From Escherichia phage EC.P1, in the sequence record PQ657772.1: DNA of 64,000 bases. One strand, given 5' to 3'. Made by a program: the position numbers and the translations under genes. Position 1 is the first letter of the stretch, and every line of letters starts with the position of its first letter. This document shows, in pieces, positions 52,455 to 59,193 of this stretch. The notes below the pieces were generated by a model. That model made no database searches. It was given only the letters and a program-made list of their open reading frames with translations, and had not been told where the DNA came from.

Positions 52455-52793
52455 TTAATACTCAATAATGTGTTCTTCATAACCATTAGGTACAGGTTTA
52501 GTTTCTTTCATTAGTACTATCATCTTATGTACTAATGGCATAGGAAACTCCAAATCCCATACTAATGATTCTTGAAAGTATTCCTCTTCAGATAAAGTAC
52601 TTAAATCTTCAATGTCAATGTGTTCGTATATGTTATATTTGTAATCAGCAAAAGATATATAAAAACCTCTTGTATTATCATAAGTAAGTGCAAATGGCTT
52701 ACCTTTGTAGTCCATTACAGAGTTACATGTATGGCATTTGATGTATGTACTTGCAAATGATTTATATACCTTGAGTTTTATATTAGTTTTCAT
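52455..52793 (-). CDS. family A paralog (near-duplicate of 52099..52440)
   Basis: motif EEEYFQESLVWDLEFPMPLVHKM. Confidence 0.65.
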   Translation of the reverse strand: MKTNIKLKVYKSFASTYIKCHTCNSVMDYKGKPFALTYDNTRGFYISFADYKYNIYEHIDIEDLSTLSEEEYFQESLVWDLEFPMPLVHKMIVLMKETKPVPNGYEEHIIEY

Positions 52794-53067
52794 ATTTCTC
52801 TTTATTAGCTTGTTTAGATTGTGTGGTTTTATAGTGAATGAAATCTATTAATGTAATCAAGTACAACGTCAAATAGTACTCTTGTTGATCTGTACCTAAT
52901 GATACAAAGAACTTGTGCTCATAGATTAAAACCTGTTTCTCTTCAAATGGACATTTAATTCTCTGTATAGGCTTAAGTAAATGATAGTACTTATTAAATC
53001 TATGATACATTTCTAGTTCTGTCAGTACTTTCATATTAAACACGTACTCCATTAGCAGTAGCATCAC
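52783..53067 (-). CDS. family B paralog
   Basis: motif LGTDQQEYYLTLYLITL. Confidence 0.55.
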   Translation of the reverse strand: MMLLLMEYVFNMKVLTELEMYHRFNKYYHLLKPIQRIKCPFEEKQVLIYEHKFFVSLGTDQQEYYLTLYLITLIDFIHYKTTQSKQANKEKYEN

Positions 53068-53257
53068 GTAAAGCTAACAAATACTTCTGTACTGCTTGCT
53101 CTTGATGATCTGTACCTAAAAGTATATACACCCATAATTCATTGTAGTGTACATCTTCTGTATAAGGGTTGTTGTAACTTTTTGATAATATAGCATCAAA
53201 TTCAGATGCATGAACCCTTGTGAACTTAAGAATATCTTGTTGTGTTATGATTCTCAT
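53036..53257 (-). CDS. family B paralog
   Basis: motif LGTDHQEQAVQKYLLAL. Confidence 0.6.
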   Translation of the reverse strand: MRIITQQDILKFTRVHASEFDAILSKSYNNPYTEDVHYNELWVYILLGTDHQEQAVQKYLLALRDATANGVRV

Positions 53258-53469
53258 ATCTTTTCCTGTACTATCTGTATAAGAATACCTATGTGTGAAT
53301 TAACAGTTCTCTCTTGATGCTGTGTTCCTAAGAGTGTCAGTACTATCATATCTGAACGCAAAAGATTTTTTTCAAGTTCACTTATATCAGTTCTTGAATC
53401 AAGTGCCATATATTTGTGATTATTCTTCCTGAATAGTGCCAAGTACTCTTGATTTGATATTTCCTTCAT
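53254..53469 (-). CDS. family B paralog
   Basis: motif LGTQHQERTVNSHIGIL. Confidence 0.6.
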   Translation of the reverse strand: MKEISNQEYLALFRKNNHKYMALDSRTDISELEKNLLRSDMIVLTLLGTQHQERTVNSHIGILIQIVQEKI

Positions 53470-53705
53470 AGTTTATTCCTGATGCCATTTAAAAGTGCTC
53501 TAATATGCTCCTGTACGAATTTGTACTGACTGTCTGTTCCTAGAGTGAGTAGTAATCTTAAATCTGAACTTTTGATATGATATTCTAAATCATTATTTGA
53601 TTCTTGCATCAGTTTCTTAAAGGATGAGAAGTTTGCAGCCATTAGTTCAATGTATTCTGCTGTTCCTAGGGGTTTGTGTATTGGCTGTTTGTGCTGTCTG
53701 TGCAT
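53466..53705 (-). CDS. family B paralog
   Basis: motif LGTDSQYKFVQEHIRAL. Confidence 0.6.
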   Translation of the reverse strand: MHRQHKQPIHKPLGTAEYIELMAANFSSFKKLMQESNNDLEYHIKSSDLRLLLTLGTDSQYKFVQEHIRALLNGIRNKL

Positions 53706-53917
53706 TTTAATTTTATTACCCTTTTGAGTGTATTAATGTAATTATACACATTGGCTTCTTGATAGTTAGTTCCCAGTGTAGCTTGAACATAGATTTCATT
53801 TAACTTAATAATTTTATCAGTATCTGGAAGTTTTGATGTGTTAATGGCAAATAACTTCGAAAACAGTCCATTTATGATTGTTAGGTATTCTACTTCGGTA
53901 ATGATTCGCATTTGCAT
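53666..53917 (-). CDS. family B paralog
   Basis: motif LGTNYQEANVYNYINTL. Confidence 0.6.
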   Translation of the reverse strand: MQMRIITEVEYLTIINGLFSKLFAINTSKLPDTDKIIKLNEIYVQATLGTNYQEANVYNYINTLKRVIKLKCTDSTNSQYTNP

Positions 53918-54123
53918 TGGATAAACCTTTTTAGTTCTTTGATGTAATCATTAATATTACATTCTTGATAGTTAGTCCCTAGGGTAGAATTAACATAGAT
54001 TTCACTCATTAGAATATTTTTTTCTTCATCAGGTAAATCTGTGGTCTTTGCTATATACAATTTTAGAATTAAACTACTTAATAGTTCGTGGTATTCACTT
54101 GGTGAAAGGATTTTCATTTGCAT
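53890..54123 (-). CDS. family B paralog
   Basis: motif LGTNYQECNINDYIKEL. Confidence 0.6.
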   Translation of the reverse strand: MQMKILSPSEYHELLSSLILKLYIAKTTDLPDEEKNILMSEIYVNSTLGTNYQECNINDYIKELKRFIQCKCESLPK

Positions 54124-54329
54124 GTTCTCAGTACAGATTCTTTAAGTTCATCGATGTAGTCCTCAACGAATTGCTCTTGGAAGTTAGTTCCAATATATAA
54201 AAGAACTCTTAAATCTGCTCTAAGTAACTCTTTTTCATCATCATCTATATCAGACAATGTTATGTTTAAGAATTTACTTGTATTAAAGATTAACAATTCT
54301 GTTTGTTCACTGTGGCTTAAAATTTTCAT
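54114..54329 (-). CDS. family B paralog
   Basis: motif IGTNFQEQFVEDYIDEL. Confidence 0.6.
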   Translation of the reverse strand: MKILSHSEQTELLIFNTSKFLNITLSDIDDDEKELLRADLRVLLYIGTNFQEQFVEDYIDELKESVLRTCK

Positions 54330-57534: not shown

Positions 57535-57748
57535 CTAGTTTATCCTGTATAACATTCGTTAATTGTTCGATATATTCTGTGCAAAACTTATCTTGATATT
57601 GAGTCCCCATAAAGTACAGCAACCATAGCTCATTAACTTTAGCTCGCATTTGGTTCCATGTAAGGCTGGGGTCATCGTAGACTATCCTTGCTATAGGGGT
57701 TAGTTTACGGACTATAGTTTCATATTCATCTAGTGTTAAGTGTTTCAT
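57491..57748 (-). CDS. family B paralog
   Basis: motif MGTQYQDKFCTEYIEQL. Confidence 0.6.
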   Translation of the reverse strand: MKHLTLDEYETIVRKLTPIARIVYDDPSLTWNQMRAKVNELWLLYFMGTQYQDKFCTEYIEQLTNVIQDKLDDYLLTKHEDFIRS

Positions 57749-57969
57749 TTACCTAAATCCCTGACATGACATTTTAAGGCCGTGATGTGGTTGTCAACCA
57801 TAACCTCCTGATAGTTTGTTCCTACAAATGGTATTAATGTTGAGTCTGTTAGTATAACATACTTTTCATTGGATGTTAGTGATTCATCATCGTAAACTTG
57901 AAGTCTAAAGTTCTTCCCTTGTTCTAATCGTTTAAGATATTCTTGGGTGTTTATGTCTTTCATTTGCAT
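57745..57969 (-). CDS. family B paralog
   Basis: motif VGTNYQEVMVDNHITAL. Confidence 0.6.
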   Translation of the reverse strand: MQMKDINTQEYLKRLEQGKNFRLQVYDDESLTSNEKYVILTDSTLIPFVGTNYQEVMVDNHITALKCHVRDLGK

Positions 57970-58178
57970 TTGTCCCTTATTAAATCAGTGAGGGCAACTA
58001 TGTGTGCAACAACATACTCTTCCTGAAAGTTCGTCCCCAGTACAGCCATCATGCGTATATCGGTGGTGTTTATCCTGTGTTCCCTTACACATAAACCTTC
58101 TGTGTGAGGAAGTGTAAAATATTTGTTTATTGCAGCAATGATAATTTTATTCTTCTCGGAATTACTTAAATGTTTCAT
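57960..58178 (-). CDS. family B paralog
   Basis: motif LGTNFQEEYVVAHIVAL. Confidence 0.6.
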   Translation of the reverse strand: MKHLSNSEKNKIIIAAINKYFTLPHTEGLCVREHRINTTDIRMMAVLGTNFQEEYVVAHIVALTDLIRDKCK

Positions 58179-58387
58179 AGTTTGCTCTTAATGTATTTCT
58201 GGAGTGCAATTATATACTCATTCAAGAAGTGCTCCTGATAATCTGTGCCGAGGAATGCACCCAATAGTATATCATTTTCCAATACTAATGCTAAGTTCAA
58301 ATCATCAGTCTCTTCATATACTATGAGAATTTCAAGTTGTCTTGCAGCGACGCGTTCGGTATATAGATTTGAGTTAATGCTATTCAT
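58175..58387 (-). CDS. family B paralog
   Basis: motif LGTDYQEHFLNEYIIAL. Confidence 0.6.
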   Translation of the reverse strand: MNSINSNLYTERVAARQLEILIVYEETDDLNLALVLENDILLGAFLGTDYQEHFLNEYIIALQKYIKSKL

Positions 58388-58596
58388 AGTTTACTCTTAA
58401 TGTAATTCTGGAGTGCAATTAAGTATTCCCCTACATAATACACCTGAAAGTCTGTATCCAAAAATGCACCCATAAGTAAATCTTTTTCTAATACCCTTGA
58501 TAAGTTAAGGTCTGCATTTGAATTGTATATAATTAAGATTTTATTCTGGACAGAAACAAAACGTATCTTATATTCTTCTGGTGTTAAAAAAATCAT
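58384..58596 (-). CDS. family B paralog
   Basis: motif LDTDFQVYYVGEYLIAL. Confidence 0.55.
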   Translation of the reverse strand: MIFLTPEEYKIRFVSVQNKILIIYNSNADLNLSRVLEKDLLMGAFLDTDFQVYYVGEYLIALQNYIKSKL

Positions 58597-58802
58597 AGTT
58601 TACTCTTAATATCTTCTATTAAAAAATGAATCCAATCGTCAACATACTCTTCCTGATGGTTTGTGTTCAGTACAGCCAACATGCGGATCTCTGCTCTTGC
58701 AACTTGGATTTCAGTTTTAGAAAGGTCTTTGCTGATATCAAACATTAAGTCCATGTATTTCAAGATAAGACCGAATGATTGGGTTCGTGTTATAGTTTTC
58801 AT
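58593..58802 (-). CDS. family B paralog
   Basis: motif LNTNHQEEYVDDWIHFL. Confidence 0.55.
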   Translation of the reverse strand: MKTITRTQSFGLILKYMDLMFDISKDLSKTEIQVARAEIRMLAVLNTNHQEEYVDDWIHFLIEDIKSKL

Positions 58803-58999
58803 TGTTTCCTCGTGGACAATATTTCATTTTTCAATGCATCCATATATTGAATCACCCATCTTCCCTGATAGCTTGTACCCAATGTAATCAAAAGGTATAA
58901 CTCAATTCGTTCTAAGTTTGTGTCTGTGTTATAAATCTTTACCATGTTTTTACGTAACAGTTCTTGATAATCTTCTTTATTTAAAATACGCATTTTCAT
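58799..58999 (-). CDS. family B paralog
   Basis: motif LGTSYQGRWVIQYMDAL. Confidence 0.6.
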   Translation of the reverse strand: MKMRILNKEDYQELLRKNMVKIYNTDTNLERIELYLLITLGTSYQGRWVIQYMDALKNEILSTRKQ

Positions 59000-59193
59000 A
59001 GTCTACCTTTTATGTCCCTTCGTAATTCTTGTAAGTATAGTTCGATATACTTTTCTTGATAGTTAGTTCCTATGAAAAGTTTCATAACCAATTCACGCTT
59101 ATATGCAATACCACGGATATGTGACATATGTAGGATATATGCCATGTTGGATATGAGTGTGTGGTTGTGCTCTTCTTGAGTTAAAATACGCAT
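58996..59193 (-). CDS. family B paralog (first gene of array in transcription order)
   Basis: motif IGTNYQEKYIELYLQEL. Confidence 0.6.
   Translation of the reverse strand: MRILTQEEHNHTLISNMAYILHMSHIRGIAYKRELVMKLFIGTNYQEKYIELYLQELRRDIKGRL

Follow-up and report, generated by a model that had tools for sequence, protein, structure and literature searches.

Gene content and organization of the array

The window analyzed here, a 64,000-nt stretch of Escherichia phage EC.P1 (PQ657772.1), comes from a RaK2-like jumbo coliphage of the genus Asteriusvirus and is 98.7% identical to fEgEco12. Positions 52783..59193 (minus strand) contain 29 head-to-tail ORFs of a single family, PHROG 4148, with no intergenic DNA, as established from ORFs, alignment and profile matches. 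With five copies elsewhere the window holds 34 family members, and the 29 adjacent genes form a tandem multigene family in the sense of at least three neighboring homologs in the same orientation. The first-pass annotation of this DNA had described 29 head-to-tail paralogs of 65 to 90 amino acids with overlapping stop and start codons; all 29 align as one family, the overlaps are found at every junction of the longest ORFs, and the lower size limit stands, but the upper limit is 94 amino acids if the longest ORF is taken.

Genes are numbered from the terminal repeat, all lie on the minus strand, and E values refer to an HMM built from the alignment of the 29 array members (A1). The first gene after the terminal repeat is gene 1 (58996..59193, 65 aa, E 3e-18), followed by gene 2 (58799..58999, 66 aa, E 3e-18), gene 3 (58593..58802, 69 aa, E 8e-23), gene 4 (58384..58596, 70 aa, E 6e-23), gene 5 (58175..58387, 70 aa, E 2e-20), gene 6 (57960..58178, 72 aa, E 4e-25), gene 7 (57745..57969, 74 aa, E 3e-24) and gene 8 (57491..57748, 85 aa, E 4e-27). 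The longest ORF of gene 9 (57262..57534, 90 aa, E 5e-21) has the conserved methionine at 57513, and gene 10 (57026..57277, 83 aa, E 2e-18) has the most divergent motif (TGTDKNA). Beyond these are gene 11 (56827..57042, 71 aa, E 2e-23), gene 12 (56612..56830, 72 aa, E 8e-27), gene 13 (56373..56621, 82 aa, E 2e-27), which was chosen for structural modelling, gene 14 (56168..56395, 75 aa, E 1e-25), gene 15 (55935..56171, 78 aa, E 3e-26), gene 16 (55681..55938, 85 aa, E 8e-27) and gene 17 (55433..55684, 83 aa, E 4e-20). Genes 18 (55212..55448, 78 aa, E 3e-23), 19 (54992..55222, 76 aa, E 4e-21) and 20 (54745..55002, 85 aa, E 1e-24) make up a triplet of more closely related copies. The most basic product, with a net charge of +10, is that of gene 21 (54534..54776, 80 aa, E 7e-22), and the most acidic, with a net charge of -7, is that of gene 23 (54114..54329, 71 aa, E 1e-23); gene 22 (54307..54537, 76 aa, E 6e-17) lies between them. 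The array continues with gene 24 (53890..54123, 77 aa, E 1e-26), gene 25 (53666..53917, 83 aa, E 2e-24), gene 26 (53466..53705, 79 aa, E 2e-21), gene 27 (53254..53469, 71 aa, E 2e-22) and gene 28 (53036..53257, 73 aa, E 9e-21), and ends with gene 29 (52783..53067, E 1e-21), which encodes 94 aa from a GTG codon or 83 aa from the conserved methionine at 53034.

Taking the longest ORFs, consecutive genes overlap at all 28 junctions, 13 of which have the sequence ATGA; if translation starts at the conserved methionine column, there are 16 ATGA junctions, four spacers of 1-2 nt and eight overlaps of 8-40 nt. The reading frames of all 29 genes are intact, and the array is probably a single translationally coupled operon.

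Four further copies (minus strand) listed in the first-pass annotation are genuine by profile, at 51871..52095 (74 aa, E 2e-11), 49411..49662 (83 aa, E 3e-7), 36553..36771 (72 aa, E 1e-5, the weakest) and 36384..36575 (63 aa, E 2e-13). The copy fused to a larger protein was also borne out: residues 1-63 of a 269-aa protein (49999..50808, minus strand) match the family HMM (E 6e-10) and phrog_4148 (E 1e-10), and the C-terminal domain is approximately 40% identical to a stand-alone protein of RaK2/K64-1. The family domain also serves as an N-terminal module joined to other domains. The fusion gene is missing from the CDS table of WPEC3 and is found in phage UB.

Family identity and distribution

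The first-pass annotation did not recognize the family, and no characterized relative has emerged: 28 of the 29 array members match phrog_4148 (best E 2e-25), a group of unknown function, and 14 also match phrog_28039. Searches of Pfam-A produced scattered single matches (E >= 0.012), NCBIfam no match, PADLOC a single chance match (E 0.0016) and PDB sequences a best match of E 0.6. With regard to a link with anti-defense, these profile and sequence searches gave the family no homology to anything named. No known defense, anti-defense or toxin domain was found among the neighbors of the array in the window, and no Pfam or PADLOC domain in the flanking proteins.

The family is confined to phages: when 1.84 billion proteins were searched exhaustively with a profile, just 83 clusters were recovered, every traced source being a RaK2-like phage, and 5,426 complete E. 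coli genomes contained no match. The main array has 23 to 29 copies in ten Asteriusvirus genomes, which answers the question of copy-number variation raised in the first-pass annotation. A divergent relative known from a metagenome contig has a 12-gene array, and the 49 kb of K64-1 that were examined hold just 13 copies in clusters of one to three. Members persist in Alcyoneusvirus and in the divergent metagenomic relative, and the expansion is specific to the Asteriusvirus lineage, copies being fewer and scattered in its relatives.

The array has probably been noticed in print, without earlier characterization. One sentence each in the reports on 121Q (Hua et al. 2017, PMC5646251) and phAPEC6 (Wagemans et al. 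2020, PMC7247149) concerns an array of tandem or closely related genes; this is probably the same object as the EC.P1 array, of which 121Q genes 319-341 and phAPEC6 gp467c-gp489c are colinear orthologs. The phrase ">30 very similar genes" fits poorly, because the paralogs are approximately 29% identical and the main array of 121Q has 23 genes, and the two papers may mean, or include, neighboring families of larger genes. Both treat the array only as a sign that the genome has grown by duplication, and do not define the family or describe its motif, structure, selection or genomic position.

Age of the expansion and selection on the genes

Among 406 pairs of paralogs the median identity is 29% and the maximum 64%, in agreement with the first-pass view that the sequence outside the motif is diversified. 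The triplet at 54745-55448, there called near-identical and taken as a sign of ongoing duplication, has pairwise identities of 47%, 55% (genes 18 and 19) and 64% (genes 18 and 20). Orthologs are colinear across ten phages, EC.P1 and nine other Asteriusvirus genomes. Because the paralogs are deeply diverged and the orthologs colinear in the nine other genomes, the expansion predates the radiation of the genus, and duplication is not ongoing. The array is an old tandem expansion of one gene, which encodes a small soluble three-helix-bundle protein. The near-identical tandem copies expected of recent amplification of the "accordion" type are absent, and there is no tandem repeat at the DNA level.

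The recent events that were observed are gain or loss of single genes and replacement of alleles, with mosaic divergence. Among phages that are approximately 98% identical, in which totals are 28 to 29, some lack gene 7 or gene 13. Gene 7 has no ortholog in Ecwhy_1, SP27, PBECO4, phAPEC6 and 121Q, where the best matches are just 30-32% identical, and gene 13 has none in WPEC5, Ecwhy_1, Turkey3 and ph0011. Gene 1 is 100% identical in WPEC3, WPEC5 and Ecwhy_1 versus 58% in PBECO4 and 121Q, and the gene 17 allele in Turkey3, PBECO4, phAPEC6 and 121Q is only 44-47% identical. When the same two phages are compared gene by gene, identities lie anywhere between 44% and 100% and dS values between 0.02 and 0.76. 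To judge from these comparisons of gene content and alleles, the array genes are individually dispensable and exchangeable.

Pooled dN/dS is 0.34-0.39 (approximately 0.38) at dS of 0.18-0.31, and approximately 0.9 between the closest genomes. By class of site, dN/dS is 0.17 for the motif, 0.23 for core columns and 0.47 for surface columns. A per-column scan found clear positive selection in no column, the maximum pooled pN/pS being approximately 1.0-1.2 in two columns, and the family value of 0.38 compares with 0.31 for neighboring unrelated genes. Since there is no clear positive selection and dN/dS is near that of unrelated neighbors, there is no family-specific signature of an arms race. 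Tandem Repeats Finder and Rfam returned nothing relevant in the array region, and the pooled dN/dS is that expected of coding sequence; the array genes are real, conserved and maintained coding genes and not the non-coding repeat DNA that the first-pass annotation had considered.

Motif and predicted structure

The GT[ND]YQE motif attributed to every copy holds as a conserved core, with T in 29, Q in 28 and G in 26 of the 29 copies of alignment A1, but its strict form occurs in only nine. Its distance from the C terminus is 24-39 residues, rather than approximately 25 throughout. The AF2 model of gene 13 (pLDDT 94.7, pTM 0.79) is a three-helix bundle, as the guess of two or three helices had allowed, with helices at residues 8-27, 33-47 and 54-81, the third exceeding the other two in length, and with residues 4 and 51 joined by a bridge; no informative structural neighbors of the model were found. 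From the model, the motif is predicted to form the helix-2/helix-3 turn and cap.

The conserved columns are hydrophobic residues at heptad spacing and the G-T-[ND]-x-Q-E residues, and the remaining columns have an entropy of approximately 3-3.7 bits. The proteins range in pI from 4.4 to 10.0 (median 8.5) and in net charge from -7 to +10, and several have basic C-terminal tails.

Position beside the terminal repeat and candidate promoters

The inward edge of the left direct terminal repeat (DTR) was located at 59291 by means of the last 60 nt of PP777464.1, which the window matches exactly. This position corresponds to the last base of the 20,993-bp DTR of fEgEco12, which was confirmed experimentally (PMC13070987), and 59291-64000 lie inside the repeat. 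The array starts 98 nt past the end of the DTR, with its first ATG at 59193; in vB_Ec-M-J the annotated DTR ends 99 nt ahead of the first array gene. Immediately inward of the left DTR, the array forms the first transcription unit of the unique DNA; all its genes are on the same strand and read inward from beside the long repeat, away from the genome end.

A putative sigma-70-like promoter (TTGACT-16-TATTAT, 59224..59251, minus strand), which matches the consensus at 10 of 12 positions in a consensus scan, lies approximately 30 nt upstream of the first ATG and is followed by a GGAG Shine-Dalgarno sequence; it is unchanged or one base different in seven of eight aligned phages. Perfect TTGACA-16-TATAAT sequences (12/12) occur inside the repeat at 63096, 62602 and 61074. 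The region as a whole is not enriched in promoter-like sites (60 found versus 65 expected from shuffled sequence). A literature search found no Asteriusvirus transcriptome; in PA5oct, a distant relative that depends on host RNA polymerase, small uncharacterized genes of the DTR are early genes by RNA-seq (PMC7318152).

Possible functions and comparison with known systems

The interpretation that we favor, tentatively and at somewhat less than even probability, is that the array encodes a diversified set of protein binders, made early and by coupled translation, that serve host takeover or counter-defense. Host RNA polymerase would transcribe the array early, starting at the sigma-70-like promoter (59251-59224) and also reading through from the strong consensus promoters inside the repeat, and coupled translation would make all of the approximately 29 proteins appear together. 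In each protein, the heptad hydrophobics would form the core, the glycine would end helix 2, the threonine would bridge to the N-terminal strand and [ND]-x-x-E would be a capping box for helix 3, and the exposed positions would be nearly all different between paralogs. As conserved residues are predicted to build the fold and exposed ones vary, each paralog would display its own specificity on a shared scaffold. Together the paralogs may then be soluble proteins that bind or inhibit different host proteins, acting in takeover or neutralizing defense or toxin effectors, and selection would retain each paralog while recombination between phages exchanges alleles and inserts or removes genes one at a time. 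A more specific and rather doubtful version is that the array is an encoded library of approximately 30 diversified three-helix "mini-binders" available from the start of infection, each neutralizing a different host defense or toxin effector. If so, it would be the phage equivalent of arrays of immunity proteins and of the multigene families that poxviruses and African swine fever virus (ASFV) carry near their genome ends, and its composition would help to determine which hosts these jumbo phages can infect.

The staphylococcal protein A domain and affibodies are three-helix-bundle binding scaffolds, and like the array proteins they consist of approximately 60-70 residues with a fixed core and variable surface residues. 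Polymorphic-toxin loci contain tandem small immunity proteins, often helical, each thought to neutralize a different effector. Both those loci and the EC.P1 array are runs of small diversified paralogs, but the array is phage-encoded and is unrelated in sequence to known immunity families. A polymorphic-toxin immunity array was rejected as an identification, since Pfam and PADLOC detected no toxin gene or domain adjoining the array. The MGF110/360/505 families of ASFV, the host-range families of poxviruses and gene "accordions" are multigene families of large eukaryotic DNA viruses that lie near genome ends and modulate host responses. These resemble the array in having tandem paralogs beside terminal repeats and gene gain or loss between isolates; they differ in that EC.P1 is a bacterial virus, the proteins are unrelated, and its copies are ancient and diverged, in contrast to near-identical recent accordion copies. 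The gp37-60 genes of SPO1 and the pre-early region of T5 are early host-takeover modules in or beside long terminal repeats. Like the array, these modules and that of PA5oct (PMC7318152) are collections of many small uncharacterized genes at a terminal repeat, in one orientation and near strong host-type promoters, those of EC.P1 being putative, but they are mostly unrelated genes with promoters of their own, whereas EC.P1 has 29 paralogs in a single coupled unit that lies just beyond the repeat, and early expression comes from RNA-seq in PA5oct but is predicted in EC.P1.

Other functions must be weighed against protein binding. The hydrophobic-Gly-Thr/Ser turn ("LGT") of the family and the long helix after it are reminiscent of the turns of HTH and RHH domains, and the array proteins might be small nucleic-acid-binding regulators or architectural proteins with a derived HTH or RHH-like module. 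The turn would then belong to a DNA-binding motif, and different paralogs would recognize different sites in phage or host DNA. The basic median pI and C-terminal tails are in keeping with this, as are the transcription-factor or DNA-binding roles that Iyer et al. proposed for the expansion of approximately 35 zinc-ribbon proteins in Bacillus phage G (PMC7824862). That expansion likewise comprises some 30 copies of one small domain of unknown function in a jumbo phage, but it belongs to another lineage and is a zinc ribbon, in contrast to the Cys-poor three-helix bundle of EC.P1, with no sequence relation. The family has neither a profile match to an HTH or RHH family nor HTH or RHH geometry in the model, and we consider nucleic-acid binding unlikely.

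Two further proposals seem to us quite improbable, and to the same degree. One is that the paralogs are subunits of a hetero-oligomeric helical structure built in the course of infection, such as a scaffold, compartment or inner-body-like assembly, and are supplied in fixed proportions by coupled translation. The tight coupling of 29 genes, the all-helical fold with its long third helix and the inner-body-like bubbling pattern of 121Q (PMC5646251) are compatible with such an assembly, but a fixed assembly would poorly tolerate single-gene gain and loss between nearly identical phages, and the copy number of 23 to 29, the small scattered clusters of K64-1, the very heterogeneous surface charge and the paper on the phAPEC6 virion proteome, in which gp46x-48x go unmentioned (PMC7247149), also argue against it. 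The other is that the array is functionless filler that is now drifting, duplicated DNA gathered after capsid growth in the way that the ratchet model of Hua et al. describes. In the tandem arrays of 121Q and phage G these authors saw genome expansion driven by tandem duplication (PMC5646251), a view repeated for phAPEC6 (PMC7247149), and the toleration of single-gene losses and the high dN/dS between the closest genomes suit it. However, dN/dS drops at larger divergence and is lowest in core and motif columns, members persist outside the genus, orthologs remain colinear across it, every frame in the EC.P1 array is open, and the fold-determining residues have been kept despite the low identity of the paralogs.

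A tightly coupled array of one gene family

Twenty-nine minus-strand ORFs encoding proteins of 65-94 aa occupy positions 52783-59193 of the window and leave no intergenic DNA. All 29 proteins align together as one family, and 28 of them match phrog_4148, a profile built independently, which agrees with the head-to-tail array described in the first-pass annotation. That annotation also had the genes joined by overlapping stop and start codons; with the longest ORFs, 28 of 28 junctions do overlap (13 as ATGA), whereas with starts placed at the conserved methionine column 16 junctions are ATGA, eight overlap by 8-40 nt, and the remaining four have spacers of 1-2 nt. 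The AAATGCAAATGA junction, in which K-C-K-stop overlaps M-Q-M, is found at six array junctions; its recurrence accounts for the MQM N-termini, and it resembles a remnant of the duplication of a unit.

The consensus of the alignment begins with M-x-x-L-[ST]-x-x-E-Y, followed by about 30 variable residues, and its C-terminal part is E.....h-G-T-[ND]-x-Q-E-x-x-V-x-x-h-I-x-x-L-x-x-x-I-x-x-K. The earlier statement that every copy keeps GT[ND]YQE holds for T, the sole invariant residue (29/29), and for most copies at Q (28/29) and G (26/29), but the strict string is present in only nine of 29. Searched with a profile of the 29 array proteins, the window yields five more members, for a total of 34 family genes, which confirms the copies noticed outside the main array: four stray genes (36384-36575, 36553-36771, 49411-49662 and 51871-52095) and a domain consisting of residues 1-63 of a 269-aa protein (49999-50808).

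Tandem Repeats Finder and Rfam found nothing relevant in the region, the former reporting no repeat array and the latter giving no match; therefore the locus is neither repeat DNA nor structured RNA, and non-coding repeat DNA is further ruled out by dN/dS ratios below 1. Between 52000 and 60000 the plus strand has an AT skew of -0.15 to -0.22, compared to about -0.05 elsewhere, and a GC skew of about 0, compared to about -0.15 elsewhere; this composition presumably reflects the A-rich codons of helical proteins rich in K, E, N and Q.

Predicted fold

The AlphaFold2 model of gene 13 (56373-56621), made with a family alignment of 53 sequences, is a confidently predicted three-helix fold (pLDDT 94.7, pTM 0.79) with helices at residues 8-27, 33-47 and 54-81 and a beta-bridge linking residue 4 and T51, much as the earlier guess of a two- or three-helix bundle had anticipated. 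The positions of the helices place the conserved motif at the turn between helix 2 and helix 3. In this model G50 would terminate helix 2, T51 would pair with the N-terminal strand, [ND]52-x-x-E55 would be the capping box of a helix, and conserved hydrophobic residues at heptad spacing would build the core, so that the role of the motif is probably structural. The other conserved polar columns are E10, E42 and K72; these and the motif columns contrast with the exposed columns, which have entropies of 3-3.7 bits.

Age, exchange and selection

Paralogs within the array are 13-64% identical (median 29%), and neighbours are slightly more alike than distant copies (33% versus 28.6%). The comparison of copy number with related phages that the first-pass annotation proposed gave colinear arrays of 23-29 members in each of ten Asteriusvirus genomes. 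This colinearity of orthologs and the matrix of paralog identities rule out the ongoing duplication read from the genes at 54745-55448, a triplet described as near-identical whose members are 47-64% identical. Gene 7 is absent from Ecwhy_1, SP27, PBECO4, phAPEC6 and 121Q, and gene 13 is absent from WPEC5, Ecwhy_1, Turkey3 and ph0011, genomes otherwise about 98% identical at the array. Within the same pair of phages, identity varies between 44% and 100% from one gene to the next, and dS between 0.02 and 0.76; this spread indicates allele replacement via recombination, by which the phages exchange array genes one by one.

The pooled Nei-Gojobori dN/dS ratio is 0.34-0.39 at dS of 0.18-0.31, and about 0.9 only for the closest pairs of genomes. 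In comparison with PBECO4 the ratio is 0.38 for the family, 0.20 for genes on the repeat side, and 0.31 for other genes of the variable region; pooled by alignment column it is 0.23 for the core, 0.47 for the surface, and 0.17 for the motif. No column is clearly above 1 in pairwise counts against one reference that ignore kinship, and this crude column-wise test gave no signature of an arms race. Taken together, identity, colinearity and dN/dS imply that the copies are old and maintained, with moderate constraint on individual surfaces, the outcome of an ancient expansion under purifying selection.

Distribution of the family

The array is 98.5-98.7% identical to those of WPEC3 and fEgEco12, and 80-96% identical to those of other Asteriusvirus jumbo phages (PBECO4, 121Q, phAPEC6, SP27 and others). 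Its genes are labelled "hypothetical protein" in every relative's record, and they stay hypothetical in that of fEgEco12, whose authors ran BLASTP and HHpred on all genes (PMC13070987). The annotation of PBECO4 (NC_027364, 20001-26358) has only 17 CDS across the array versus 29 members by profile, and in this phage an extra gene of 366 nt (gp231) separates the array from the upstream region that is otherwise conserved.

The family is confined to phages of one clade. A collection of 5,426 complete genomes of E. coli gave no match. A word-indexed protein search returned 84 family proteins, and all sources with names or long contigs are Asteriusvirus-type genomes. The proteins P0006, P0007, P0029, P0031, P0033, P0050, P0051 and P0054 carry the database label "hypothetical protein [Escherichia coli]"; their contigs, 345-360 kb long, are entire Asteriusvirus genomes within E. 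coli assemblies (contamination or carrier state), and none belongs to the set of complete genomes. When 1.84 billion representatives were searched exhaustively with the profile, no more than 83 clusters reached E <= 1e-3; their lengths are 52-102 aa, and the motif was present in 23 of the 23 weakest matches, which were inspected. Searches of isolated phages by tblastn matched only 33 records, from Escherichia and Salmonella, with one member as query, and none with a divergent metagenomic member; a scan of IMG/VR with the back-translated motif found only RaK2 and two chance matches.

RaK2 also carries family members, and in 49 kb of the Klebsiella phage K64-1 (NC_027399) a small local search with the profile detects 13, with E values between 1e-13 and 1e-6; they are dispersed, singly or in groups of up to three. 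Sixteen members are encoded on a metagenomic contig of 101 kb, whose identity to K64-1 and phAPEC6 is patchy and about 75%; 12 of them form an overlapping array after a run of spaced small genes, the same layout as in the window. Therefore, the family belongs to the RaK2-like clade, in which Asteriusvirus and at least one uncultured relative are marked by a large single array. Between Asteriusvirus, this contig and K64-1, members are 30-44% identical, about as much as within a genome, so no one-to-one orthologs emerge.

Position at the terminal repeat

The direct terminal repeats of fEgEco12 are 20,993 bp, as confirmed by experiment (PMC13070987). The final 60 nt of its record match the window exactly, ending at 59291, and the annotated repeat of vB_Ec-M-J stops 99 nt short of that phage's first array gene; thus, the inner boundary of the left repeat lies at 59291, and 59291-64000 corresponds to the final 4.7 kb of the fEgEco12 repeat. 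Unique DNA begins with the array, whose first ATG is at 59193; like all else in the window, it is transcribed in the direction leading away from the end of the genome. Between the repeat end and this ATG is a sigma-70-like site on the minus strand (TTGACT-16-TATTAT, 59251-59224, a consensus match only), which is followed by a GGAG ribosome-binding site and is identical or one base different in seven of eight aligned phages.

Perfect sigma-70 consensus sites (TTGACA-16-TATAAT) are located on the minus strand at 63096-63069, 62602-62575 and 61074-61047, in spacers between small repeat genes, and several near-perfect sites are also within the repeat, among the spaced small genes; all are consensus matches only, and the total number of sigma-70 sites is not above shuffled expectation. 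The 38-nt element AAAGGGATTGACTCCGGTCAGTCCCTTTGCTATTATAT occurs identically at 63535-63498 and 60775-60738 on the minus strand of the repeat, with a degenerate copy near 59360-59325. Its 12-bp stem-loop includes a TTGACT -35 hexamer, after which comes a TATTAT -10 hexamer; the element may represent a promoter under regulation, or a terminator and promoter combined in one cassette. PA5oct, a distant relative, relies on the RNA polymerase of its host, and there RNA-seq identified the small uncharacterised genes in the long terminal repeat as the early ones (PMC7318152). Expression of the array would likewise be early, driven by host-type promoters. No Asteriusvirus transcriptome was found in the literature searched, and the virion proteome paper of phAPEC6 (PMC7247149) mentions none of gp467c-gp489c.

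Possible functions

Maintenance of the genes, simplicity of the fold, age and exchangeability of the copies, and position at the repeat boundary turn thirty-odd entries of "hypothetical protein" into a testable proposal. Tentatively, the array may encode a set of diversified soluble binders, each acting on a different host protein in host takeover or counter-defence. That the members are instead DNA-binding regulators is unlikely, and that they combine into a hetero-oligomeric assembly is more doubtful still. Hua et al. (PMC5646251) suggest functionless duplicated ballast, which has an equally slim chance of accounting for these maintained copies; the remaining probability belongs to some explanation not considered here. 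If the members of the proposed set of binders are specific inhibitors, the array would amount to a concise inventory, made by nature, of targets in the host, and would be a source of small stable binding scaffolds; an array without a phenotype would support the existence of long-lived duplicated ballast in jumbo genomes.

Jumbo phages in which a small protein has expanded in one lineage are already known, and this array is an uncharacterised example. About 10% of RaK2 genes are paralogs (PMC3622015). No earlier mention defines the array family, and it is not certain that earlier authors meant this one; what is new is that its motif, its fold, its age and its place in the genome are now defined.

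Neighbouring families and the fusion gene

Other multigene families are present in the window. One has 12 members of about 113 aa that share an invariant F-Q motif; its genes are interspersed among the stray members of the array family, to which it is unrelated by profile comparison. A long run of minus-strand genes encoding proteins of 140-210 aa (22354-48701) includes several more paralog families: one of seven members of about 150 aa (31761-40791), one of three (46369-48701), and two of paired genes (37282-38168 and 46910-47568); no function could be assigned to the representatives tested, and this run may be the ">30 very similar genes" of Hua et al. The flanking proteins tested have no Pfam domains, and the PHROGs that they match are of unknown function.

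The fusion gene at 49999-50808 is missing from the CDS table of WPEC3 and present in phage UB. A word-indexed protein search returned only the fusion protein itself, and its C-terminal domain offers no clue to function, the sole match of this domain (about 40% identity) being an uncharacterised stand-alone protein of RaK2 and K64-1. Two members in K64-1 (20310-20684 and 23661-24011 in locus coordinates) are extended at the C-terminus by about 50 residues; the two extensions resemble each other, without significant similarity to the family of about 113 aa (E of 0.02-0.08). From the fusion and these extensions it follows that the three-helix domain has been reused as an N-terminal module.
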